DNA of 64,000 nt from an uncultured Enterobacterales bacterium (GCA_964604165.1 CAZRYF010000001.1:55481-119480), one strand, 5' to 3'; positions 12 to 15,725 are shown, counted from the first letter of the stretch. Notes: generated by a model from the sequence alone, not told the origin. Numbers and translations: made by a program.

Positions 12-1709
12 TTGTTGGCCTGGGTCCGACCCCATTGGGCAGCCTTGGGCTTCGCGGGGGCTCTCCTTGCCATCGGAGCTCTCTGCGAGGGCGGTCTGAT
101 CTTTCTGTTGGAGACCGTTCTTGATGACGGACTGATTCAGGGAGATGCCACGGTGCTGGCATGGATTCCGGTGGCCGTGGCATGCCTGTACGGGATCAAG
201 GGGGCGGCCCGGGTGGGAAGCGGCGCCTTGGTGCACCGAACCGGCCTTCGCATCGTTCGAGATCTGCGATCAGCGCTGTTTGGGCACCTGATGGTCCTGG
301 AGCCTGCTTTTCATGCGGAGGGGTCCTCTGAGGAGCGCCTGTCCCGGCTCACCCAGGATGTGGCCCGCACCGAGGGGATAGTCCATGGCCTCGCCCATGG
401 GGTGGAGAAGCCCTTGACCCTTTTGGCGCTCTTGGGTGCGGCCTTCTGCATGGACTGGCGGCTGACTCTCGCGGCGGTTGTGGTGCTTCCCGGTGTGGGG
501 TTGGCGATTCACCTCTTTTCTACTCGACTTCGGCGGACCTTTCGCCAGAGTCTGGACAACCTGGGTCGCCTGGGCGTGAGCGCGGGACAAAGCCTCGACG
601 GTGTGGAGGTGATTCAATCCCTGGGGGGACAGAAGGTGCGGGAGGCTCACTTTGAGCAGGAGAACGAGGAACAAGAGCGGCTTCTCTTTCGCGCCCGGTT
701 GGCCCGGATCATTCCGGGGCCCTTGATCGAGGCTCTTGCTGCTGTCGGGGTGGGGCTGGTCATCTACAGCGGCGGGGCGCGGGTTCTGGCCGGAACGCTC
801 CAGCCCGGGGAGCTCATGGCCTTTCTGGTGGCGATTGGCATGATGCACATGCCTTTGAAGGGCCTCTCCGCCATGGCCGCGGATCTTCAGGAGGCGCTTG
901 CGGGTGCGGAGCGGGTGTTTGAAATCCTGGACCGTTTGCCTGCCATAGAAGGGGGCGCTGCCGTTCTGCCAGCGGGGCCCAGTACGCTTGTCTTCACCGA
1001 TGTGTGGGTGACCCGTGGGAAACAGGGGGTCTTGAGAGGGGTGGATTTGGAGGTGCAGCCAGGGGAGGTGGTGGCGCTCGTAGGCGCGAGCGGGTGCGGG
1101 AAGACCACCTTGGCGTCCCTGGTACCCCGCCTACTGGATCCGGATCGAGGTACCATTCTCCTTCACGGTCGCAGTCTTGGGGAGTACACCCTTCAGAGCT
1201 TGCGATCCCAGGTGGCATTCGTACCCCAGCATCCGGTACTCTTTGCCGCAAGCGTGGCGGACAACGTGGCGTTGGGACGCCCAGGGGCCACACGCCCGCA
1301 GGTCGAGAAGGCGTGTCAACAAGCGGGGGCAGCAGACCTCATCTCGCGGCTTCCACAGGGGTTGGACACTTTCTTGGAGGGTGCAGGAGCCCGCCTGTCC
1401 GGGGGCGAACGCCAGAGGCTTTGCATTGCGCGGGCCCTCCTCCTGAACGCGCCGGTGCTCTTACTGGACGAAGCCACGTCTTGCATGGAGCCGGGATCAG
1501 ATGCGGTCTTTCAGGAGACTCTGGCGCAGCTTTCGAAGGAGAGGACCATTCTTGCGATCGCCCATCGTCTCTCCACGGTTCGTGCAGCGGACCGAATCGT
1601 GGTCTTGGAGGAGGGTCGCATCGTGGACATGGGGCGCCACGAGGAACTCCTTGGCAGCAGCGTCTCCTATCGGCGATTCCTGGGTGCAACCGTTGAGGCC
1701 CAATCCTGA
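12..1709 (+). CDS. msbA: ABC exporter, fused permease/ATPase, MsbA-like lipid A flippase (true N-terminus may lie upstream of the window)
   Basis: 565-aa ORF. TM-rich N-terminal half. Walker A GASGCGKTT, ABC signature LSGGERQR, Walker B LLLDEATS. TGATG stop/start overlap with the downstream lipid A gene. Confidence 0.85.
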   Translation: MLAWVRPHWAALGFAGALLAIGALCEGGLIFLLETVLDDGLIQGDATVLAWIPVAVACLYGIKGAARVGSGALVHRTGLRIVRDLRSALFGHLMVLEPAFHAEGSSEERLSRLTQDVARTEGIVHGLAHGVEKPLTLLALLGAAFCMDWRLTLAAVVVLPGVGLAIHLFSTRLRRTFRQSLDNLGRLGVSAGQSLDGVEVIQSLGGQKVREAHFEQENEEQERLLFRARLARIIPGPLIEALAAVGVGLVIYSGGARVLAGTLQPGELMAFLVAIGMMHMPLKGLSAMAADLQEALAGAERVFEILDRLPAIEGGAAVLPAGPSTLVFTDVWVTRGKQGVLRGVDLEVQPGEVVALVGASGCGKTTLASLVPRLLDPDRGTILLHGRSLGEYTLQSLRSQVAFVPQHPVLFAASVADNVALGRPGATRPQVEKACQQAGAADLISRLPQGLDTFLEGAGARLSGGERQRLCIARALLLNAPVLLLDEATSCMEPGSDAVFQETLAQLSKERTILAIAHRLSTVRAADRIVVLEEGRIVDMGRHEELLGSSVSYRRFLGATVEAQS

Positions 1710-3841
1710 TGGGTCGGCTTGTCTACGGGTTGCTCTGGCTCGCCGCCATGCCGTGGGTGTGGGGGGTGTCCCGGCTACACCCGAGACTTCGGTTTGGGTG
1801 GGGTCAAAGGTGGGGCTGGGGCGTGCCGGCACTGGAGCCTGGGTGCATTTGGATTCACGCGGCTTCTGTGGGGGAAGGCCGAGCGGCGGAGGCCATTCTC
1901 CTTTCCCTTCGGGAGGCCGGCTGCGACAGGGTGACCCTTCGCACGGCTGCTACGCGGGAAGGATGGGAAACCGCACGGGGCCAGGACCTGTTGGCCATCG
2001 GTCCTCTGGACCATCCATGGGTGGTGGCCCGGTGGCTGAACCGGGTGCGCCCGGGGCTGTTGATCTTGGTGGAGGGAGAGCTCTGGCCCCACCTGCTCTT
2101 GGCCGCAAAGGCCCGCGGCATTCCGGTCTTGGTGGCGGGAGCCCGGTTGGGTCCAGGGATCCGCCGCCTTCAGCGTTTCGCTCCCTCGCTTTTGCGGACC
2201 TGCATGGATTGTGTGTCTCGTTGGCTTCCCGCCGATCGCCAGGCGGCAGACCAACTGGAAGCCTGGGGGGCGGCCTCGGTGCGTTGCGTGGGCCACCCCA
2301 AGAGCGATGCTCCACCCGGACCGGGTTTGGAGTTTGGCCGCCCAACGCTGGTGGCGGGCTCCACCCGGGCAGGGGAGGAAGCCATGCTCTTGGAGGCGAT
2401 TCAGTGCCTGGAGGAGCCACCTCTTCTTGTGTTGGCGCCGAGACATCCAGCCCGATTCGAGGAAGTGGGAGCCCTTCTTGGCGCTGTCGGTCTCCCCTGG
2501 TGCCGAAAGAGCGAGCTGGAAGAGGTGGTTCCAACGGACGTGGACGTGCTCTTGGTGGATTCCATGGGAGAGCTTTCGGGGCTCTACCGCGGCGCTGCTG
2601 CTGCCTTTGTGGGGGGCACTTTTCACCCGGAGATTGGGGGCCACTCACCTGCGGAGGCTGCAGCGGGCGGTGTTCCCCTGGTCTCGGGTCCGTTCAATGA
2701 GGCCCATCGCCCGTTGTGGGCCGTTCTGGATGCCCATGTGGCGCTGGAACCCGGGGACTTGCCGGCCTGTATTCAGGCAGCCCTTTCGGCGCCGGCGCCG
2801 GCGCCCTTGCCGGGGGGCGCAGCCGGAGAGGTGGCGCAGGAAGCGTTGGCGTGGGTGCCTTTGGAGGCGATCCGAGCCCGAACGCCTCGACCCTGGTTGG
2901 CGCCCATTGGTTGGGTGTGGATGGCCCTCATGAGCTATCGAAACCTGTTTTACTCCTTCCGAACAGGCGTTCGTACCCGTGGGCCGGTGGTGTCCGTGGG
3001 AAGTTTGGGCAGCGGGGGAGCGGGGAAGACGCCGGTGTCCGCCTGGCTGGCGGAGCACCTCGGGGAGCGGGGAATAGCAGCCACTGTAGTGGCCCGGGGC
3101 TACGGGAGGGGCCGAGTTGGCAAGTACGTGCGCACCCCGGTGGCCCGCAGGGATGCGGTCTGGTTGGGGGACGAGCTGGCGATGCTGGCCAGGAGGGGGC
3201 TCTCTGTGATCTCCAGCCCCGACCGAGTGGCGGGGGCGGAGGTGGCCTTTGCCCAAGGAGCGCAGGTGGTGGTGCTTGATGATGGATTTCAACACCGCCG
3301 AATCGCCCGGGATCTCGACATCGTGGTGGTGGATGGTCGCTGGCCGGAAGAAGGTGGACCTCTGCCAGCCGGAGAACGCAGGGAGCCACTGGATGCCGTA
3401 CGTCGTGCGGATGTGCTGTGGGTCAGCGGTGGAGCGACTCCCAAGGGGTTGGCGCAGTCTCTGAAACCCGGGGCGCTTGTGGTTCGCTCCCATGTGCAGC
3501 CAGTTTGTTGGATTCGGGGGGAGGAGGAGTTGCCCCTGGGGGAGCTGGCAAGCCGTTCGGTGTGTGCTTTCGCCGGAATCGCCCGTCCGGGCCGCTTTCT
3601 CTCCCAGCTGGTGGGTCTGGGGATACGGATCGGAGGGTGGCGCACCTTTCCCGATCACCACCGCTTCAGCGCCCGGGAGGTTCGGGACCTGCTCACCTGG
3701 TCAAGGGGGCGGCCCCTGGTCACCACGGAGAAGGACCAGGTCCGTTTGCCCTCGGACCTGGAGGTTTGGTGCCTCCGGGTGCGATGTGTTCCCGTGGAAG
3801 GCCGGGAGCCCCTGGAGCTGTTGTTGCGGGAGATCGCATGA
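1709..3841 (+). CDS. waaA-lpxK: Fused Kdo transferase (WaaA/KdtA) and tetraacyldisaccharide 4'-kinase (LpxK)
   Basis: 710-aa uninterrupted ORF. N-terminal half has the WaaA hallmark WIHAASVGEGRAA and a GT30-like C-terminal lobe. From about aa 395 there is an LpxK-like TM segment and P-loop GSLGSGGAGKTP (3008-3031). Confidence 0.85.
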   Translation: MGRLVYGLLWLAAMPWVWGVSRLHPRLRFGWGQRWGWGVPALEPGCIWIHAASVGEGRAAEAILLSLREAGCDRVTLRTAATREGWETARGQDLLAIGPLDHPWVVARWLNRVRPGLLILVEGELWPHLLLAAKARGIPVLVAGARLGPGIRRLQRFAPSLLRTCMDCVSRWLPADRQAADQLEAWGAASVRCVGHPKSDAPPGPGLEFGRPTLVAGSTRAGEEAMLLEAIQCLEEPPLLVLAPRHPARFEEVGALLGAVGLPWCRKSELEEVVPTDVDVLLVDSMGELSGLYRGAAAAFVGGTFHPEIGGHSPAEAAAGGVPLVSGPFNEAHRPLWAVLDAHVALEPGDLPACIQAALSAPAPAPLPGGAAGEVAQEALAWVPLEAIRARTPRPWLAPIGWVWMALMSYRNLFYSFRTGVRTRGPVVSVGSLGSGGAGKTPVSAWLAEHLGERGIAATVVARGYGRGRVGKYVRTPVARRDAVWLGDELAMLARRGLSVISSPDRVAGAEVAFAQGAQVVVLDDGFQHRRIARDLDIVVVDGRWPEEGGPLPAGERREPLDAVRRADVLWVSGGATPKGLAQSLKPGALVVRSHVQPVCWIRGEEELPLGELASRSVCAFAGIARPGRFLSQLVGLGIRIGGWRTFPDHHRFSAREVRDLLTWSRGRPLVTTEKDQVRLPSDLEVWCLRVRCVPVEGREPLELLLREIA

Positions 3842-5949: not shown

Positions 5950-6030
5950 CCCGGTTCAGCCAGGATGGCTCAACCTCCAATGTGTCCGTGTTACGGTGGG
6001 AGTGATGCGAAACTGAAACACGGGTGAAAC

Positions 6031-7440
6031 ATGGACGCCCACAGGCAATTCCAGAGGTGGATACGCCAGATTGGGCCCGTGGAGGCCTTCACAGGCCTGG
6101 TGGCCCTCCTGGAGTCACTGGATGAAGACGGTGCAGCGGTCTTCGCGGTCGATGCGGGTCGGAACATCCAGTTCTGGAGTGAGGGGGCACAGCGCCTTCT
6201 TGGATTTCCGGCGGAGGACGTGGTGGGGCAACACTGTCTCAAGTCCAACCGGTGTGAGAACTGCATGGCCGGGTGCGGGATCACGACCCACGGTCAGATC
6301 AGTGACGTGCCCCTGAAGTACTTTGATTCCCACGGCAATGAGGTGTTGATCGAGAAGTCTGGACGGGCTTTCTTTGATGCGGCCGGAGATTTCGCAGGGG
6401 GAATTGAGATTCTGCGACCCAGGAGGGAGGGGAGGAAGGCGAAGGGGGAGCGTCTCCCGCGTCCATCCCAGAGGGATGATCTCCTCGCTGGGTTTGAGGT
6501 GGAGCAGTTTCACGGACTGGTGACGGGAAACCCGGAAATGAGGAGGGTGTTCGCGCTCATCCGAAATGTGGCTGAGACCCAAGCGACCGTCCTGGTGCGG
6601 GGGGAGAGCGGAACCGGAAAGGAGCTGGTAGCGCGAGCTCTGCACGAGGAGAGCCAGCGACGGAACAAGCCATTTCTGGCGGTGAATTGCGCGGCCTTGA
6701 GCGAGAACCTGTTGGAGAGCGAGCTCTTTGGACACGTGAAGGGGGCCTTCACCGGCGCGGTTGCGAACCGAAAGGGGCTCTTTGAGCAAGCGGACGGGGG
6801 GACCCTCTTTTTAGACGAGGTGGCAGAGCTGCACTTGGACCTGCAGGCCAAGTTGCTTCGGGTTTTGCAGGAGCAGGTCTTCTCTCCCGTGGGCTCTACC
6901 CGAACGGTGAAGGTGGATGTGCGCATCATCTCGGCGACGCATCAACCCCTTCGACTTCGCGCGGCAGAGGGGACGTTTCGCGAAGACCTCATGTACCGCC
7001 TGAGGGTCGTGCCCCTCTACATTCCGGCCCTTCGAGAGCGGCGCCTGGACGTGGAGATCCTGCTTCGCCATTTTGTGCAGCGAAACAACGAACGGGGTCC
7101 GCGCATGGTGAGAGACATCCACCCGGATGCGCTCCGCGTTCTCCTGGATCACCGCTGGCCCGGAAATGTTCGGGAGGTGATCAACGTCGTCCAATATGCC
7201 TTTGCGGTGGGCCGTGCTCCGACGCTTGGGCTCTCCGACTTACCCCCTGAATTCCGGGAGGCGGATTCATCCTTGCGGGTTCCAATGCCCGGAGTCATGC
7301 AACACAGTCCGGAACAAAGCGAGAAGAGGGAAATGGAGTTGGCTCTTTCCCAAACAGGCGGTCACATCGGCCAAGCGGCGGAACGGCTGGGCATGAGTCG
7401 TCCCACCTTCTGGCGAAAGCGGAAGAAGTACGGCTTTTAA
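6031..7440 (+). CDS. Sigma-54-dependent transcriptional activator (bEBP): PAS-like sensor with a Cys4 cluster, AAA+ domain and Fis-type HTH
   Basis: Walker [22 protein letters not shown] loop (KGAFTGA), C-terminal HTH ([25 protein letters not shown]). N-terminal PAS-like domain carries C-x5-C-x2-C-x3-C at 6235-6276. Confidence 0.9.
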
Positions 7441-8095: not shown

Positions 8096-9268
8096 CTACC
8101 ACCGCTCCCACCACTGCCTGACATAGACAAGTCCCACGACCATGTGTCCGCCCTGTGCAAGGAGGAGGCCGTTGTTGTGGGGTGCGGCGGAGGTGTGGGT
8201 GTTGTGGATTGCGACCTGCAGTTCGACATAGTGGCCTTGGAAGTCCTCCAGGAGGCCTTCGGGCAGGGTGAAGCTTCCATCCGGTGTGACGAGGCAGCGA
8301 ACTGCGGTGTCGTCCTGGGTGGAGAGGAGACGAATGACGCCGTAGTCGGCCGAGCTGGCAGCGTAGCGAACCACAAAGTTGTCCACCCCGACGCGGGGGA
8401 CGGCTTGCTCGTAGACAGGCGGACTGATCACGGCCAGGCTGGCGGGCGTCTCAAAGGCCCCCGGGATCGCAAGAGGGGGTGCTGTGGCGCCTCCGGAGAA
8501 CTGGAGGTCATGCTCAACACCCGCGGTCCAGGCCCCGGTGCCCAGGAGGGAGTGGTAATGGTCGGTTCTGGACTCCCAGGAGACCGCTTCCGCTGATCCG
8601 TCGCGGCTCACCACCACCTCCGACCCGACCGATTGGCCGTTCATCTGGACCCAGGGCTCCTCATGGGTCCACCCGTCGTCTCGCACACAGGCGTCCATGC
8701 TCGTGCCCCAAAAGGGGGGCAGGTCCCGCGAGGTGGGCTCAAACCAGGCCATTCGGGCCGCGACACCGCTCTCTGCATCCTGCCAGTGGGAGGTGCGTGC
8801 CATGTCAATGAAGGTCCAACTCGCCAGCGCGGTCTGCAACCCGGTGGCGTCCTCCCAGTAGGTGAAGGGCGAGTCGGGCTGAAGGCTGTGAGCACTCCCA
8901 ACCAAGCGAATGTTGGCCTGCCCCGGGGCCCCGGAAGGAGGTGTCAGGACCTCCAGGCGCGTCGCCTCCAACGAGACGATCTCCGCGAGGGCCCCGCCGA
9001 TCCACACCTCCACCACCTGATCGAGTCCCTCCCCCTGGAAGAGGAGGCGTGTTCCGCCAAGGGTCGATCCGTGGAGGGGGGCGATGTCGTCCAGAGCAAA
9101 GGGCTCCTCGGCCGTGTCCCCTGAATCGCCCGAATCCTGCCAGCCGTGGAAGGAAGGAGAAGGGGCAATTGCCTGGTCTGGGCGCTCCTCGTCGACGGGA
9201 GTGGAGCCGATTTCCAGGACAGCAGAGGGTGCGCAGGCGGCGAGGAGGAGGACGGGAAGGAATCGCAT
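8096..9268 (-). CDS. Lipoprotein with an IPT/TIG domain
   Basis: Start at MRFLPVLLLAAC (lipobox LLAAC), with GGAG 7 nt upstream. IPT/TIG-like segment IAPLHGSTLGGTRLLFQGEGL...VWIGGALAEIVSLEATRLEVLTPP. Confidence 0.65.
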   Translation of the reverse strand: MRFLPVLLLAACAPSAVLEIGSTPVDEERPDQAIAPSPSFHGWQDSGDSGDTAEEPFALDDIAPLHGSTLGGTRLLFQGEGLDQVVEVWIGGALAEIVSLEATRLEVLTPPSGAPGQANIRLVGSAHSLQPDSPFTYWEDATGLQTALASWTFIDMARTSHWQDAESGVAARMAWFEPTSRDLPPFWGTSMDACVRDDGWTHEEPWVQMNGQSVGSEVVVSRDGSAEAVSWESRTDHYHSLLGTGAWTAGVEHDLQFSGGATAPPLAIPGAFETPASLAVISPPVYEQAVPRVGVDNFVVRYAASSADYGVIRLLSTQDDTAVRCLVTPDGSFTLPEGLLEDFQGHYVELQVAIHNTHTSAAPHNNGLLLAQGGHMVVGLVYVRQWWERW

Positions 9269-9308: not shown

Positions 9309-9324
9309 CGCAGGATTCGTGCCA
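9309..9324 (-). promoter_or_regulatory. Candidate sigma-54 (-24/-12) promoter for the 9268 lipoprotein operon
   Basis: Minus strand reads TGGCACGAATCCTGCG. GG-N10-GC spacing is correct. About 40 nt upstream of the ATG at 9268. The -12 element is CTGC rather than TTGC. Confidence 0.5.
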
Positions 9325-9433
9325 AGTGTGGGGTGACCATTGGATGCCGCAAGGCCCGCATTCTCCGCAGGCTTGTTTCAATTGGCGAAACGCGTGAAAC
9401 GCGGGATGAAATGCCCGTCGCCCCTTGTGGGAA

Positions 9434-10996
9434 CTACCGCGTGGCCTCCACCACATAGGTGGCGAGATCGGCAATCTCCTCGGCGGTCAGGGTCTCTTGA
9501 AAGGAGGGCATGACTCCGACGCCGTGGGTCACGGCCCTCTCGACCTGATCCTGGCTCGGCTTCAGGGTGTCCAGGTTGGGCCCCACGGCCCCCAAAGCCT
9601 CGGCCTCAGAGAGGGTGTGGCAGGAGCTGCAAGCAGGGGTGGACACCTCGGAAAAGACCGTGCGGCCCCGCTCTCCGGCTTCCGAGAGCTGGACCTCCTT
9701 TCTCGGGGGTGCGAGGACGGTCTCGGCCTGGCCCTCTTGTGGCCCGGGGCGCTGGGCGAGGGATGCCACCACCTCTAGTTCGAGGATCGCATCGCGCCAG
9801 GCGTTGTGGCTGTATCCACGCTCATTCTCTTGACGGGCCTCGGGTTGGACCTCTCCGGCCTTGTCTGTGGCCCGGGACACAATCGAGTGGCGGCCCGGCT
9901 GCAGGCTGGCGGAGAACTGAAAGGTGCGCCAGGCGTTGGAGCCCATGTCCGGGCCGACCCAGTCGGCCTTCTGCCAGCTCGTCCCCTGGTCCAGGGAGAC
10001 CTCCACCCGCTCGACGCCTCTCTCTCCTGAGAAGGCCACCCCGTGAAAGTGAACCTGTCCGGCCTGAACGGGCTCGCCGTCAGCCCCAGGGCCGTTGACC
10101 CAGGACTTGACCGGCATTCGCCACATGGAAGGTTGGGTGGGGTCACCCTTCTCACCGAGAGGCCGAATCCGGTATCCCCGCTGTTGGATCTTCGCGCCGG
10201 ATTGATGCTCGGTGAAAGCCAGCGTCTTGATGTACTTCACCTGGTTGCACCCAAAATACCCCGGCACCACCAGCCGCAGCGGACCCCCGTGGGTCAGGGG
10301 GATCGGCTGACCGTTCATCTCCCAGGCGAGCAGGCAGTCCTTGAGTCCCTTTTCCAGCGGGATCGAGCGCTCCACCACCACGGAGGCCGCGTCGACCCCT
10401 TCGGGGATCTCCTCTCCCCCTGTGGCGGTGACAAACCGGGCGCCCGGCGAGGCCCCCCCCAGGTGTGCAGCCACCTTGGAGAGCGCCACCCCTGTCCAAT
10501 TCACACAGCCAGCGGCCCCAAGGGACCAGGGTGACCCGGACGGGCTGTGGTCGAAGAAGCGCCGACCGTTTCCGGAACACTGAAGGACGGATGTGATCGT
10601 GTCTCGCCCCAGAGATGCGAGATCCGCAAGCGACAGGGTGCCGGCGGTGCCGGTGCCTTGCACCTGCAGGCGCCATCGCTCCGGGTGATCCACAATGGAG
10701 CGGTCTGGACGGGGGAGGTTGTTTCGAACGAACAACAGGCTCGCGGGGGTCAGCGAAGCGGACGCCAGCTTCGAGCGGCGTGTCTCCAGGGCCAGAGGGC
10801 GCTCATTGTGGACATGAAAGTCGGAGCGCTTCAGTCCATCCGGGAGAGGGGCCACAGCCCCGGTCCCCGGGGTGGGGTTGGGTTTCAACGGGGCCGCGGG
10901 CGGTGGCTTGAGACGGCAGGCGCCCAGAAGTGCAGCGCCGCTGCCCAGGGAGAGGGCCGTCAGAAACTGGCGCCGGCTCTTGGGTTTGGAAGGCAT
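9434..10996 (-). CDS. Sulfite dehydrogenase/oxidase family molybdoenzyme (SorA-like) fused to a C-terminal class I cytochrome c domain; Tat-exported
   Basis: Twin-arginine leader SRRQFLTAL. Moco-binding Cys motif VLQCSGNGRRFF. Dimerisation domain. Heme motif CSSCH at 9617-9631 with a distal Met candidate (GVMPSF). Confidence 0.8.
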   Translation of the reverse strand: MPSKPKSRRQFLTALSLGSGAALLGACRLKPPPAAPLKPNPTPGTGAVAPLPDGLKRSDFHVHNERPLALETRRSKLASASLTPASLLFVRNNLPRPDRSIVDHPERWRLQVQGTGTAGTLSLADLASLGRDTITSVLQCSGNGRRFFDHSPSGSPWSLGAAGCVNWTGVALSKVAAHLGGASPGARFVTATGGEEIPEGVDAASVVVERSIPLEKGLKDCLLAWEMNGQPIPLTHGGPLRLVVPGYFGCNQVKYIKTLAFTEHQSGAKIQQRGYRIRPLGEKGDPTQPSMWRMPVKSWVNGPGADGEPVQAGQVHFHGVAFSGERGVERVEVSLDQGTSWQKADWVGPDMGSNAWRTFQFSASLQPGRHSIVSRATDKAGEVQPEARQENERGYSHNAWRDAILELEVVASLAQRPGPQEGQAETVLAPPRKEVQLSEAGERGRTVFSEVSTPACSSCHTLSEAEALGAVGPNLDTLKPSQDQVERAVTHGVGVMPSFQETLTAEEIADLATYVVEATR

Positions 10997-11005
10997 GCGC
11001 GGCTC

Positions 11006-12034
11006 CTAAGCGCCCATCAATACCCGGGTCACCACGAAGCCGCCGCCTACCAGCCAGGCAAAGAGGGACAGGGCCAGGTAGATCGGGGCCATTCCCACGC
11101 CTTTGAACTTGCTTGCGTTGGTCTCGATGCCCAGGGCGGTCATGGCCATGGTGAGGAGAAAGGTGTCAAACACGTTGACCCCTTGCACCAGGGAATCGGG
11201 CAACAGAGCCAGACTGTTGAAGCCTGCCACCGCCACGAAACCCACGGCAAACCAGGGAATGACCACGGGGGGGCGCTTGCCTCCCTCGGTGGCGGCACCC
11301 CGGGACAGGGCCCAGCCGATCACGATCAGCGCAGGTGCAAGGAGCATGACCCGGGTCATCTTGACGATGACCGAGGTCTGGGCAGCCTGGGCTCCGACTG
11401 CTTCCCCCGCGCCCACCACATGGGCGACCTCGTGAACCGTGGCGCCGATGTAGATGCCAAAGACGTTCTCCGGCATGGGGATCCAGCCCATGCGGTAGAC
11501 GAACGGATAGGCGAACATCGCCAGGGTGCCAAAGAGAACAACGGTCCCCACGGCCACTGCCGTCTTGTGGGCTTCTGCCTTGACCACCGGCTCAGTGGCC
11601 ACCACGGCCGCCGCGCCGCAGATGGCGGCCCCAGCGGAGGTCATGATCGCGGTCTCCTTGTCCATTCTCAGCACCTTGATGCCGAGAAAGGTCCCCAGGG
11701 CCAGGGTGGTGGAGAGCATGATCACATCCACGATGAAGCCGTTCAGTCCCACGGCGGCGATCTGTGAAAACGTGATGCGAAAGCCGTAGAGGATGATGGC
11801 CAGGCGAAGAATGATCTTGGCGGCATAGAGGATGCCGGAGGACCAGTCCGTCGGGATTTTTTGCCTGGCGGTGTTGCCCAGCACCGCGCCAAGGAGAATG
11901 CCGATGATCAGCGGGCTGATGCGCAGGGAGAGCATCGCTGGCGAGCCTGCGAGCCAGGTGGCGGCGGCCGACAGGAGCGCCACCAGAGTGAGGCCTTCAA
12001 AGAACCCGGGCGATTGGTAGGGGAAGTACTTCAT
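11006..12034 (-). CDS. YeiH/UPF0324 family membrane protein (putative sulfate/sulfite exporter)
   Basis: Start at MKYFPYQSPGFFEGL, overlapping the upstream stop. Polytopic membrane protein with YeiH-like segments (ISPLIIGILLG, FGIYIGATVHEVAHVVGAG). Confidence 0.7.
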   Translation of the reverse strand: MKYFPYQSPGFFEGLTLVALLSAAATWLAGSPAMLSLRISPLIIGILLGAVLGNTARQKIPTDWSSGILYAAKIILRLAIILYGFRITFSQIAAVGLNGFIVDVIMLSTTLALGTFLGIKVLRMDKETAIMTSAGAAICGAAAVVATEPVVKAEAHKTAVAVGTVVLFGTLAMFAYPFVYRMGWIPMPENVFGIYIGATVHEVAHVVGAGEAVGAQAAQTSVIVKMTRVMLLAPALIVIGWALSRGAATEGGKRPPVVIPWFAVGFVAVAGFNSLALLPDSLVQGVNVFDTFLLTMAMTALGIETNASKFKGVGMAPIYLALSLFAWLVGGGFVVTRVLMGA

Positions 12035-12480
12035 GAGCCGAGCCCCCCGCCCGTCAATCTCTTGCTCAAGGCGGCGTTCAACACCTGATAGAGGAACATT
12101 CCAAGGAGCAGGGTGCCCACAAAGGTGACGGCGGCGCCGCTCCCGGTGATGCAGGACACAATCCCCGGACCGGGGCAGAATCCACCCAAGCCCCATCCCA
12201 CGCCAAACAGCCCGGCGCCGAACACCAGCCGCTTGTCGATGTTTGTGCGCGTGGGAATGGAGAAGGCGTCTTCGCACAAGGGGTTGTCCCGGCAGGTGAC
12301 CCATTTGAAGGTCCCCAGGTGGGCCCCGATGGCCCCGACCATGACAAAGGCCAGGGAGGGGTCCCAGGAGCCGGCAGCGTTGAGAAAGCCGATCACCTTG
12401 TTGGCGTCGGTCATTCCCGACACGCCGAGTCCGATGGCGAAGAGCGTTCCCGAGAGGAACGCCGCGGTGGATGACTTCAC
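12031..12480 (-). CDS. YeeE/YedE (DUF395) sulfur-compound transporter, second half-size subunit
   Basis: GTG start at 12480 in a GTGA overlap with the upstream stop. 4-TM protein with GGFCPGPG motif. Paired with the adjacent half-size YeeE/YedE gene. Confidence 0.7.
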   Translation of the reverse strand: MKSSTAAFLSGTLFAIGLGVSGMTDANKVIGFLNAAGSWDPSLAFVMVGAIGAHLGTFKWVTCRDNPLCEDAFSIPTRTNIDKRLVFGAGLFGVGWGLGGFCPGPGIVSCITGSGAAVTFVGTLLLGMFLYQVLNAALSKRLTGGGLGS

Positions 12481-12905
12481 AGGACACCTCCAGCGAAGAT
12501 CTGGATGCCCGTGGCGGTGGCGAAACCAGTGGCCATGAAGGTCAGTGTCGCCACCAGGGAACGAATGGAGAGGCGGGAAAGTCCGCAGACGCCGTGCCCG
12601 CTCGTGCAACCAGATCCCATTCGAACCCCAACGCCCACAAACAGACCCGCGAGGGCAACAGACGAAAGCCCGCGACTCGCTGGAGCGGAGATGGACTGGG
12701 GAAGGGCGAGCATGAGGGCGAGACCGCCTACCAGGAGCCCCCCCACAAAGGCGGCCCTCCAAGCCACCTCGCCAGAGGAGGGCGTGAGCAGACCGCCGAC
12801 GATGCCGCTGATGCCGGCGATTCGTCCCAGGGACAGCAGGAGAAAGGAGGCGGAGAGGCCAATGAGGGCACCCCCCAGGACCGCCAGGATGATGGATTGC
12901 AACAT
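12477..12905 (-). CDS. YeeE/YedE (DUF395) sulfur-compound transporter, first half-size subunit
   Basis: 142-aa 4-TM protein with the conserved Cys loop GSGCTSGHGVCG. Confidence 0.75.
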   Translation of the reverse strand: MLQSIILAVLGGALIGLSASFLLLSLGRIAGISGIVGGLLTPSSGEVAWRAAFVGGLLVGGLALMLALPQSISAPASRGLSSVALAGLFVGVGVRMGSGCTSGHGVCGLSRLSIRSLVATLTFMATGFATATGIQIFAGGVL

Positions 12906-12908
12906 AAT

Positions 12909-13634
12909 TCAGGCTCCGGCCACGGGGTTCTCGGGGAGGGACCTTCCACAGGCCATGTTGGCCGGTAGCGCTTCCTTGATCTTGTTTGGGTAGGCCAGGT
13001 TGAGGTTGTCCATGATCTCCACAAACTGCTTCTTGCTGTTGGCGAGCTTGAGTCGGGGATTGAAGGTCTTCTCCTCCCGGACGGTGGAAACCGCGTGGCC
13101 CTTGTAGTCATGGCCTGGGTAGACGAGGGTGTCATCCGGGAGGCTGTAGATTTCGTCGTGAACCGAGTCGTACAAGGTGGAAGCGCTCCCCTGTTGAAAG
13201 TCGGTCCGTCCGCAGCCTCGAACAAAAAGCGCATCCCCCGAAAACACGTAGGTGCCTCCGTTGTCTCGCACGACGACCGACATGCAGGAGCTGGTGTGGC
13301 CGGGGGTGTGACGGAGCTCCGCGGTGAGTGTGCCAAACAAGAGTACCTCCCTGTGTTCCGCTCTTCGGTCGGCGCAGTCGACGCCGGCTGCGCTGCTCAA
13401 GACAGACTGGGCCCCCAAACGCTCCCGCAGCACCCCCGATCCCGTGATGTGGTCCGCGTGGACATGGGTGTCAATGAGGTAGAGCAGTGTCAGCCCGAGC
13501 TCTCTCACCAGGCGGGAGTCTCGTTCTACCTGCTCCAACACCGGGTCGATCAAGATGGCCTCCTTCGTGGACGCGTCTGCGAGCAAGTAGGTGTAGGTGG
13601 AGGTTTCTTTGTCGAAGAGCTGACGGAAAATCAT
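12909..13634 (-). CDS. Persulfide dioxygenase (ETHE1-type metallo-beta-lactamase fold)
   Basis: Start at MIFRQLFDKETSTYTYLL (GGAG 6 nt upstream). MBL motif THVHADH. The ETHE1-like N-terminus F(R/K)QLFD..S.TYTYLL is typical of PDOs. Confidence 0.8.
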   Translation of the reverse strand: MIFRQLFDKETSTYTYLLADASTKEAILIDPVLEQVERDSRLVRELGLTLLYLIDTHVHADHITGSGVLRERLGAQSVLSSAAGVDCADRRAEHREVLLFGTLTAELRHTPGHTSSCMSVVVRDNGGTYVFSGDALFVRGCGRTDFQQGSASTLYDSVHDEIYSLPDDTLVYPGHDYKGHAVSTVREEKTFNPRLKLANSKKQFVEIMDNLNLAYPNKIKEALPANMACGRSLPENPVAGA

Positions 13635-13726: not shown

Positions 13727-13742
13727 AGCAATTGCCGTGCCA
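13727..13742 (-). promoter_or_regulatory. Sigma-54 promoter for the sulfur-oxidation operon
   Basis: Minus strand reads TGGCACGGCAATTGCT, a perfect TGGCAC-N5-TTGC. About 90 nt upstream of the PDO start codon. Confidence 0.75.
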
Positions 13743-13840: not shown

Positions 13841-13888
13841 TGTTTCAATCCAGCAATCCAGATAGACCAGGAATGAAACATTGAAACA
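13841..13888. promoter_or_regulatory. Candidate enhancer (UAS) between divergent sigma-54 promoters
   Basis: Inverted repeat TGTTTCAAT (13841-13849) / ATTGAAACA (13880-13888), plus a tandem TGAAACA at 13874-13880. AT-rich island about 100-150 nt from both -24 elements. Confidence 0.4.
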
Positions 13889-13999: not shown

Positions 14000-14015
14000 T
14001 GGCACAACTGTTGCT
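14000..14015 (+). promoter_or_regulatory. Sigma-54 promoter for the 14043 lipoprotein gene
   Basis: TGGCACAACTGTTGCT, a perfect TGGCAC-N5-TTGC. 28 nt upstream of the start codon, followed by AAGGAG SD and the ATG at 14043. Confidence 0.75.
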
Positions 14016-14042: not shown

Positions 14043-15725
14043 ATGCCTTTTCCCTCCATTCGGTCATCCGCTCTTCTCACGGGGTTTTGCCTGGCCCCTG
14101 TCGCCTGCGGGAGCGAGGAGAGCCCCTCCCTCCCGGAGGCTTCCTACCTGGAGGTCACCGCGCCGCTTCCCGGCGCGGTGATCCAGACACCAACGGTTGG
14201 GTTGGGGGGCCTACTTGAGGGTCTCATGTCCCTGACGCTCGCAGGCGAGTCGACCCACGCAAAGCCGGAGGCAGGGGCGTTCAGGTTCTCAGTGCCTGTA
14301 GCGCCCGGCATTCGCACGTTCAGGGTGGAAGGGCGCGGTCAAGATGGAACACCCCACTTGGATGTTCGCTCCGTTCTTGCCGGTGAATTTGAACATGCAG
14401 ACCGCGTGGTAGAGGAAGCAGCGGGTGTTTTCCTGGGGCGAGACGGTTTGCAGAGCGTGGGAGAGGCCCTGGTGGAGGAGCTGACCCCGTCCCACTTGTC
14501 TGACCTCCTGCGGGACGAGAACCCCCTCTTCCGGGAATTCGTCCAGGTAGAGGGGTGGGGGGTCGATTTGGCTTTGGCGGTGGAAGCGGTGGACTTCTCC
14601 GACGCTCGGGCGTGGGTGCAGCCCCGGGAAGGAACCCTGGAGGTCTCACTGGATCTGTCGTTCCTTTCGGCCCAGGTGCAGATCCAGGGGGGGATCTTCG
14701 GCTGGATTGAGCATGACATGAACGGGGTGCTCACGGCGGATCGGCTCCAAATCCAGGTCTCGGTGTCGCCCCTGGCCTCCGGGGGTGGCATTGCCCTCGT
14801 GTCCCAGGGAGGGGAGGTCTCCCTGGAAGGGTTTGGTTTTGACATGGAAGGGGTACCCGATTTCCTTGAGGATCTTCTGGCGGCAGGGGGGGGGCTGCGG
14901 AAGGAGCTGGAGGAGGAGATGTATGCTCAGATTCAGTCCACCTTGTTGCCTCGACTCGAGGCACATCTTGGAGAGCTTGAGTTCGCCCGGGAGGTGCCCG
15001 TTCTGGGTACAGAACTGGAAGTGGACGTGGCCATTGGGCGGGTGGAGGTAAGCCGTGACGGACTTACCCTCGTGACCGAAATCAGCGTTCGCGGGCAACA
15101 TGGCGAGAGTTTGGGTCCGGGCTCTCTTGCGGGACCCTCCCCCACGCTGCAAGGAGCGGGTTCAGACCAGGGGGAGCTGCTCCTGTCCGACAACTTCCTG
15201 AACCTCGGCCTCTACCAGCTCTGGCAAGCGGGGGCGCTGGACACCAGCTTCTCCACGAGCGAGGGCACACTGGACCCACTTCTGCCCCTGTTCTTTGACA
15301 CCCGGGAGGCAGCGATTCGACTGGTGGAGCGTCTTCCTCCTGTGGTGGTGGAGCGAGACGGAGAGCTGACCCTTTCCTTTGGAGAGCTGGAAATGGAGCT
15401 GCTGACCCCGGGGGCCCCCTTGGGGGAGAGAGCCCTGGTGATCTTGCAGGGGGAGGGCGCAGTGGAGGTTGCCCTGGCGGACGGCACGCTCACACTCTCC
15501 GCAGCCGAGCCAGAGGTGACCGTCTTTGTGCGGGAAAGTGACTGGGGCCTGTCCGCAGCGGAGGCCACCGCGGCCGTGAAGGAGGTGCTTCCCATGGACC
15601 TGCTGGTGGAACGGTTTCGGACCCTGCAGATTCCGGTGCCAACGCTGCCGGTGTTGGAGGGGCGTGCGCTCACCCTTGTCCGCGGCGAAGGCGGCCACCA
15701 GAGCGCGGTGGTGTTCGGAAACTGA
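14043..15725 (+). CDS. Lipoprotein of unknown function (sigma-54-dependent)
   Basis: 560-aa ORF. Signal peptide with lipobox LAPVAC. Strong SD. No recognised catalytic motif. Confidence 0.7.
   Translation: MPFPSIRSSALLTGFCLAPVACGSEESPSLPEASYLEVTAPLPGAVIQTPTVGLGGLLEGLMSLTLAGESTHAKPEAGAFRFSVPVAPGIRTFRVEGRGQDGTPHLDVRSVLAGEFEHADRVVEEAAGVFLGRDGLQSVGEALVEELTPSHLSDLLRDENPLFREFVQVEGWGVDLALAVEAVDFSDARAWVQPREGTLEVSLDLSFLSAQVQIQGGIFGWIEHDMNGVLTADRLQIQVSVSPLASGGGIALVSQGGEVSLEGFGFDMEGVPDFLEDLLAAGGGLRKELEEEMYAQIQSTLLPRLEAHLGELEFAREVPVLGTELEVDVAIGRVEVSRDGLTLVTEISVRGQHGESLGPGSLAGPSPTLQGAGSDQGELLLSDNFLNLGLYQLWQAGALDTSFSTSEGTLDPLLPLFFDTREAAIRLVERLPPVVVERDGELTLSFGELEMELLTPGAPLGERALVILQGEGAVEVALADGTLTLSAAEPEVTVFVRESDWGLSAAEATAAVKEVLPMDLLVERFRTLQIPVPTLPVLEGRALTLVRGEGGHQSAVVFGN

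Follow-up and report, generated by a model that had tools for sequence, protein, structure and literature searches.

The locus described here raises the question of what signal a sigma-54 activator with a cysteine-rich PAS domain perceives and which genes it controls. The protein, P0001, is encoded as an open frame of 469 amino acids at positions 6031-7440 (+) of the window, by which we mean the whole 64,000-nucleotide stretch of DNA that was analysed. A first-pass annotation had placed four cysteines within 14 residues of the PAS domain, had tied the protein to a persulfide dioxygenase (PDO)/sulfite dehydrogenase operon through the regions 13841-13888 and 9374-9412, and had proposed that it acts by analogy to FisR with a different sensor. 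Bacterial reactive-sulfur sensors fall into three recognised classes; FisR represents one of them, and its sensing mechanism is unsettled (PMC7315123, PMC12754779). In the literature that we searched, we found no description of a form of FisR with a four-cysteine (Cys4) PAS domain.

P0001 displays the complete three-domain layout of FisR, namely a regulatory domain, a AAA+ domain with the GAFTGA motif, and a Fis-type helix-turn-helix (HTH). Pfam assigned residues 34-128 to PAS and 164-329 to Sigma54_activat, followed by AAA_lid_14, and residues 427-467 to HTH_8. The PAS sensor core (residues 35-130; 6133-6420, +) was delimited using the Pfam PAS and PAS_9 matches, an AlphaFold2 (AF2) model, and Foldseek. 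The AAA+ sigma-54 interaction domain (residues 164-329; 6520-7017, +), which contains GAFTGA, matched PF00158 with E = 1.4e-70, and the Fis-type DNA-binding domain was located by Pfam at 7309-7431 (+). A helix of this HTH_8 domain is similar to SRTTLWRYRQK in Acinetobacter baumannii FisR. When compared with NCBIfam, P0001 scored above the curated cut-off of no equivalog. The genome encodes 15 enhancer-binding proteins, and P0001 is the only one on its contig.

The FisR protein used for comparison was taken from A. baumannii chromosomes that are filed as plasmids and were found by PDO matches in a plasmid collection. In A. baumannii ATCC 17978, FisR corresponds to A1S_1707, and the arrangement of its gene has been published (PMC7315123). 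In our locus L054, which matches this arrangement, a 423-amino acid sigma-54 activator is oriented divergently to pdo, a BLH-SQR fusion, and tauE. Between the AAA+ domain and the end of the aligned HTH (304 residues), P0001 and A. baumannii FisR are 49% identical, and the two are reciprocal best matches (300 versus 254 bits and 308.6 versus 219.9 bits). A maximum-likelihood tree of AAA+-HTH modules was calculated from 17 family members together with 13 activators of P0001's genome and 4 of A. baumannii; it omits two paralogues that lack a Walker A pattern and three family members of insufficient length. P0001 and A. baumannii FisR fell, with ten family members (nine with the Cys4 motif and the three-cysteine protein P0061), into a clade with 100/98 support. 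This clade leaves out every paralogue in the tree, 12 from P0001's genome and 3 from A. baumannii. Taken together, the identity, the reciprocal best matches, and the clade indicate that the output half of P0001 belongs to the FisR family by descent and not by mere analogy. The fisR-pdo spacer of L054 contains ATGTTTCACAATCGTTTCATTGAAACATACTTGAGTTTCAT and then TGGCATCTTATTTGCA, the same boxes as found in the window, and TGTTTCA/TGAAACA boxes also occur in the fisR-pdo spacer of Acinetobacter haemolyticus. The alignment with FisR that the first-pass annotation had suggested upholds its view that the sensor is different and goes beyond the proposed analogy: the AAA+-HTH module is orthologous and the boxes are the same.

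Searches of the window for such boxes and for sigma-54 elements pointed to a small number of putative control regions. Three TGTTTCA/TGAAACA boxes at 13841-13888 form a candidate upstream activating sequence common to two divergent sigma-54 promoters, both with perfect -24/-12 elements. One of these, TGGCACGGCAATTGC (13728-13742, -), is the predicted promoter of the PDO operon, and the other, TGGCACAACTGTTGC (14000-14014, +), precedes a gene for a 560-amino acid lipoprotein (14043-15725, +) whose product was assigned to no Pfam family. A second array, composed of TTGAAACA, GTTTCG, GTTTCA, and ATTTCA (9374-9412, -), is situated 50-90 nucleotides upstream of a third sigma-54 promoter, TGGCACGAATCCTGC (9310-9324, -). 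This promoter has one mismatch and stands before a gene recognised by Pfam as encoding an IPT/TIG lipoprotein (8096-9268, -), with the ATG at 9268 and opening with MRFLPVLLLAAC. Finally, the box search and the layout of the homologues identified three GAAAC boxes, CGAAAC, TGAAACA, and TGAAACA (6008-6031, +), which finish exactly on the ATG of P0001 itself (TGAAACATGG); no divergent gene lies beside them in the window. None of 500 shuffles produced a group of at least three boxes within 80 bp. Across the 4.66-Mb assembly as a whole, clusters with a strict box were found at 6008-6031, 9374-9412, and 13841-13888 only, all inside the window, so that the two regions singled out beforehand are two of the genome's three clusters.

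The putative target operon (9434-13634, -), annotated with Pfam and NCBIfam, starts with PDO (12909-13634) and continues with a Sulf_transp half-protein (12477-12905), DUF6691 (12031-12480), YeiH (11006-12028), and a SorT-SorU sulfite dehydrogenase fusion (9434-10996), all on the minus strand. The Sulf_transp half and DUF6691 are encoded by small membrane-protein genes with PDO on one side and YeiH on the other, and together (12031-12905, -) they probably constitute a split YeeE/YedE-type sulfur transporter pair. The fusion unites a SorT-type sulfite dehydrogenase and a SorU-type cytochrome c in one 520-amino acid frame (9434-10996, -), in which NCBIfam assigned residues 57-409 to SorT and 444-515 to SorU. 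Elsewhere in the window, a Kdo transferase domain (Glycos_transf_N) and LpxK are encoded together in a single 710-amino acid frame (1709-3841, +).

We compared 22 homologue loci, 20 with flanks of up to 20 kb and two from the genome collection. A PDO homologue adjoins the activator in 14 of the 22 and is divergent in 10 of those 14; in two further loci the neighbour is a divergent rhodanese gene or a Sulf_transp gene downstream. Of the ten divergent spacers, most have (T)GTTTCA/TGAAAC(A) box arrays beginning at or near the start codon of the activator, and a GGCA-N-TGC sigma-54 element precedes PDO in seven. The exceptions are L036, where both boxes and promoter are absent, and the pair L033 and L035, which have boxes but no promoter match. 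We read the conserved boxes and sigma-54 element as the phylogenetic footprint of a predicted enhancer. This footprint agrees with both regions named beforehand, 13841-13888 and 9374-9412, and together with the synteny between activator and PDO it supports the proposed link of P0001 to the PDO/sulfite dehydrogenase operon.

In the window itself, the P0001 gene does not adjoin PDO and lies 5.5-6.3 kb from the PDO promoter. Because PDO is divergent in the relatives, the boxes at the activator start double there as the PDO enhancer. The layout in the window looks derived: the activator gene has kept the boxes at its 5' end, and PDO lies 5.5 kb off with its own enhancer copy. The boxes at 6008-6031 may be left over from the ancestral arrangement, or they may serve autoregulation. 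We assign P0001 to the three promoters because it is the only enhancer-binding protein of the contig, because the window holds the sole box clusters, and because of the PDO synteny and the homologue spacers. It is a strongly supported prediction that the Fis-type HTH of P0001 binds the TGTTTCA box arrays, and an equally strongly supported one that its AAA+ domain activates the three sigma-54 promoters in the locus, those of the PDO operon, the 560-amino acid lipoprotein gene, and the TIG lipoprotein gene. The PDO/YedE-half/DUF6691/YeiH/SorT-SorU operon would then convert persulfide to sulfite and sulfite to sulfate and would provide candidate transporters. We regard it as highly probable that P0001 is a FisR-family regulator of this sulfur regulon.

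P0001 contains five cysteines. Four of them fall inside 14 residues of the PAS domain, in the motif C69-x5-C75-x2-C78-x3-C82 (6235-6276, +), and the fifth, C220, is in the AAA+ core. Alignment A1, which comprises 39 sequences (P0001 and 38 homologues of similar length, with residues 1-160 as query), shows no variation at the four cysteines or at R74 and G83, and the four cysteines are again invariant in alignment A2, built from the 22 loci from genomes. When 1.84 billion cluster representatives (50% identity) were searched exhaustively with HMMER, 1471 matches were obtained, and the motif was scored in the best 150 of these. The exact C-x5-C-x2-C-x3-C was present in 80 of the best 150, and none of the 150 had a variant Cys4 spacing. 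Matches without the motif were mostly long multi-PAS proteins whose alignment is confined to the first, generic half of the domain. The best score in the exhaustive search belonged to P0040, a protein of 4799 amino acids with 32 PAS-like stretches and without the Cys4 motif. Invariance across homologues places the Cys4 cluster far beyond chance, and a fortuitous grouping of cysteines is thereby excluded. The four closely spaced cysteines of the first-pass annotation are thus confirmed by translation, and the conservation that it had asked about holds in the PAS-bearing orthologues, as seen in A1, A2, and the representatives.

In some relatives of the same clade, between one and four of these cysteines have been lost, and some representatives of the PAS-bearing branch retain C69, C75, and C82 alone, or fewer. 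The sources assign the branch homologues to metagenome bins of Myxococcota, Alphaproteobacteria, and Gammaproteobacteria. Going by the source names of the closest homologues, the organism that encodes P0001 probably belongs to Myxococcota. A six-frame search for the sensor domain in 401 genomes of the same phylum gave 44 positive genomes, a patchy distribution; with this query, no match was obtained in G107, the one additional genome of this genus covered by the search.

Beyond the activators, the Cys4 PAS domain occurs in fusions with histidine kinases of the HisKA_3 or HisKA type and in a PAS-HTH protein without AAA+. Its presence in histidine kinases as well indicates that it is a portable, self-contained sensor. 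The set of P0064, P0180, P0115, P0094, P0109, P0183, and P0194-P0197 takes in these architectures together with the tandem-PAS activators and the chemoreceptors described below; P0064 has two copies of the Cys4 PAS domain together with HisKA_3, and one Cys4 protein is a PAS-PAS-HTH_8 protein without AAA+. P0044, P0047, and P0140 combine the Cys4 PAS domain with AAA_lid_14, and P0047 and P0140 also with HTH_8. None of the three gave a significant Sigma54_activat match, and these proteins may be activators that have degenerated and lost contact with sigma-54.

The AF2 model of residues 1-160 adopts a PAS fold with a mean pLDDT of 83.7, with values above 90 in the PAS core outside the Cys loop and of about 74 in the loop. 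In this model, the four cysteines are located in the short helices linking strand 2 and strand 3, and the helices between these strands form the usual cofactor side of PAS domains. The dip in pLDDT at the Cys loop would be expected of a site modelled without its cofactor. The best Foldseek matches to the model were LOV and PAS domains. No solved structure of a close relative was found among the generic PAS, LOV, and phytochrome matches, the ESM Atlas yielded nothing beyond generic PAS clusters, and a query of the plasmid collection with the N-terminal domain produced one weak, unrelated match only.

The R domain of A. baumannii FisR, of about 120 amino acids, has no cysteine, in agreement with its published description (PMC7315123). 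A. baumannii FisR is nonetheless sulfide-inducible by experiment (PMC7315123), and the Cys4 motif is therefore not the sole sensing route of the family. An hhalign comparison of A2 with the single A. baumannii R-domain sequence gave a probability of 3%; with a profile of 33 diverse Acinetobacter R domains the probability was 59% (E = 9e-5), over 33 N-terminal columns only, which correspond to the N-cap helix and the first strands. MAFFT placed a gap in the Acinetobacter R domain across the Cys loop. These alignments are suggestive of an Acinetobacter R domain that is a decayed PAS domain and lost the Cys loop. The final protein search for FisR relatives returned Acinetobacter orthologues only. 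Some Acinetobacter plasmids encode a 327-amino acid FisR-like form from which the R domain is absent altogether. On the A. haemolyticus plasmid NZ_CP139049.1, for instance, this activator without a regulatory domain (L053, 3834-4817, -) is oriented divergently to pdo, blh-sqr, tauE, and cydAB. The boxes there are again the same, a sigma-54 promoter is present, and the protein may represent a constitutive form carried on plasmids.

Only one sigma-54 activator with an Fe-S PAS domain has been published, OrpR. In OrpR of Desulfovibrio vulgaris Hildenborough, sensing by the PAS [4Fe-4S] cluster depends on the conserved cysteines C52, C61, and C65, and Asp/Glu54 is the proposed fourth cluster ligand (PMC8359166). 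Judged by the published residue numbers, C69-x8-C78-x3-C82 of P0001 reproduces the C52-x8-C61-x3-C65 spacing of OrpR in the same place of the domain. Among the HMMER matches, tandem-PAS activators pair a Cys4 PAS domain with a second PAS domain of the pattern C-x-D-x6-C-x3-C, which is in register with the Cys4 motif and has Ser, Asn, Ala, Thr, or Gln at the position of C75. The likeness to OrpR is drawn from these residue numbers together with the look-alike PAS domains. There are also chemoreceptors with two C-x-D-x6-C-x3-C PAS domains, and a search seeded with a protein bearing such a domain retrieved chemoreceptors and kinases; OrpR was not among the matches.

Four invariant cysteines with rigid spacing favour a ligand geometry over a two-cysteine polysulfide switch. 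From these sequence patterns, we consider it rather probable that Cys4 is a metal or cluster site. That the centre is specifically an Fe-S cluster is a more tentative assignment, to which we give somewhat less than an even chance.

The chief alternative is that the motif belongs to a metal-free thiol sensor, in which sulfane sulfur persulfidates Cys4 and the resulting tri- or tetrasulfide bridges relieve repression of the AAA+ domain. The position of P0001 in the FisR clade, with the same regulon, speaks for such a sensor. In addition, a passage of PMC9495516 that cites Li et al. 2017 describes a Cys53-Cys64 tetrasulfide in Cupriavidus FisR, and these two residues fall where MAFFT aligns the Cys loop, provided that the numbering is near that of A. 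baumannii FisR. However, known persulfide sensors of this kind need two cysteines only, and the cysteines of Cupriavidus FisR are not generally conserved (PMC7315123, PMC12754779). Four cysteines that stay invariant and identically spaced across 80 divergent representatives are moreover typical of ligand geometry, and we consider the thiol sensor unlikely.

We find it decidedly improbable that the cysteines hold a structural Zn(Cys)4 site that merely steadies the PAS helices, with the signal read elsewhere by a PAS-pocket ligand, a partner protein, or the AAA+ domain. A compact Cys4 motif with one CxxC fits zinc, and the sulfide response of A. baumannii FisR without Cys4 and the loss of cysteines in some relatives are in line with a structural role. 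Against this, the Cys4 motif is in register with PAS domains containing three cysteines and an Asp, the reported pattern of the OrpR cluster ligands, and a Zn(Cys)4 site can itself sense sulfane sulfur, as has been reported for PerR (PMC9952342). Least probable of all, and only a slight prospect in our view, is an O2/redox sensor that gates the O2-dependent PDO/SorT pathway by redox state instead of sensing sulfide or persulfide: its Cys spacing would be OrpR-like and OrpR reads redox potential, not one specific molecule (PMC8359166), but P0001 is orthologous to the sulfide-inducible A. baumannii FisR, with the same sulfur-detoxification regulon, and both the binding site and the regulon of OrpR differ from those of P0001.

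Our preferred reading remains a metal-centre sensor in a FisR-family activator. The N-terminal PAS would be the input domain, and its four cysteines would bind a metal centre within the cofactor pocket of the PAS fold. The likeliest such centre would be an Fe-S cluster that resembles the [4Fe-4S] cluster of OrpR, with C75 standing in for Asp/Glu54. By analogy with OrpR and other activators of that class, the sensor would keep the ATPase off until sulfide, sulfane sulfur, or a change in redox state modified the centre and so lifted the block. Taken as a whole, a FisR-family activator with a Cys4 PAS metal-centre sensor acting on the sulfur regulon is the best explanation of the data, although we put it at no better than an even chance. 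Several points count against it. PDO needs O2 and the PDO/SorT pathway is aerobic, which would make an O2-labile cluster an awkward sensor. A. baumannii FisR responds to sulfide without cysteines in its R domain, and close relatives have three cysteines or fewer. The distance of 5.5-6.3 kb between the regulator and the PDO promoter and the low pLDDT of the Cys loop, about 74, also weigh against the model.

These results indicate that a large branch of the FisR clade has a PAS domain with four invariant cysteines that are spaced like the cluster ligands of OrpR. The domain is a concrete candidate for the sensing site in a family with an unsettled mechanism, and it joins the FisR and OrpR literatures. 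We further predict a compact regulon set by one box motif, which brings in the 560-amino acid and TIG lipoproteins as candidate sulfur-stress genes outside current models of sulfide detoxification. A bolder and rather doubtful proposal, again from sequence comparison, is that the Cys4 PAS is the ancestral and still most widespread input of the FisR clade, with an Fe-S cluster that reports sulfide or persulfide by its assembly or ligation state. If true, this would define a new cluster-based class of reactive-sulfur sensor, would account for the unconserved cysteines of Cupriavidus FisR and for the gap in the A. baumannii mechanism, and would mean that the same portable Cys4 module also feeds histidine kinases. 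FisR (2017, 2020) and OrpR (2021) were already known; what is new here, as far as the literature searched goes, is a FisR-clade activator with a Cys4 PAS sensor.

Among known systems, OrpR shares with P0001 the PAS/AAA+/HTH architecture of a sigma-54 activator. It differs in having three cysteines plus Asp/Glu54, whereas P0001 has an invariant fourth cysteine, C75, and lacks an Asp or Glu two residues after the first cysteine, the Asp position being occupied by a lysine (K71). OrpR recognises GGGCGYRTTTTGCGCCC and controls the orp cell-division operons in an obligate anaerobe, whereas P0001 is linked to TGTTTCA boxes and a PDO/SorT regulon. With a different DNA site and regulon, P0001 was rejected as an OrpR orthologue.

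NreB and NreBC also sense through PAS domains but are two-component kinases and not sigma-54 activators. Staphylococcus carnosus NreB is a PAS kinase whose [4Fe-4S] cluster is held by four cysteines in a C-x2-C-x11-C-x2-C motif, unlike the pattern of P0001, and with this different spacing an NreB-type motif was rejected for P0001. In Bacillus licheniformis, NreBC responds to sulfide by activating sqr-pdo via a PAS domain, for which the authors suggest heme (PMC9918477).

The closest comparison is with FisR of A. baumannii and Cupriavidus pinatubonensis JMP134. Like these proteins, P0001 is a sigma-54 activator composed of an R domain, a AAA+ domain, and a Fis-type HTH, and it is associated with a PDO-led sulfur detoxification operon that has a sigma-54 promoter and, in most relatives, is divergent from the regulator. 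Unlike A. baumannii FisR, whose R domain has neither cysteines nor the loop, P0001 has a full PAS domain with CX5CX2CX3C. The Cys53/Cys64 pair of Cupriavidus FisR, compared by published residue numbers, is spaced otherwise. No SQR gene adjoins PDO in the window operon, unlike the A. baumannii operon, and in contrast to the FisR loci the regulator of the window stands apart from PDO, with a regulon that adds SorT-SorU and two lipoprotein genes.
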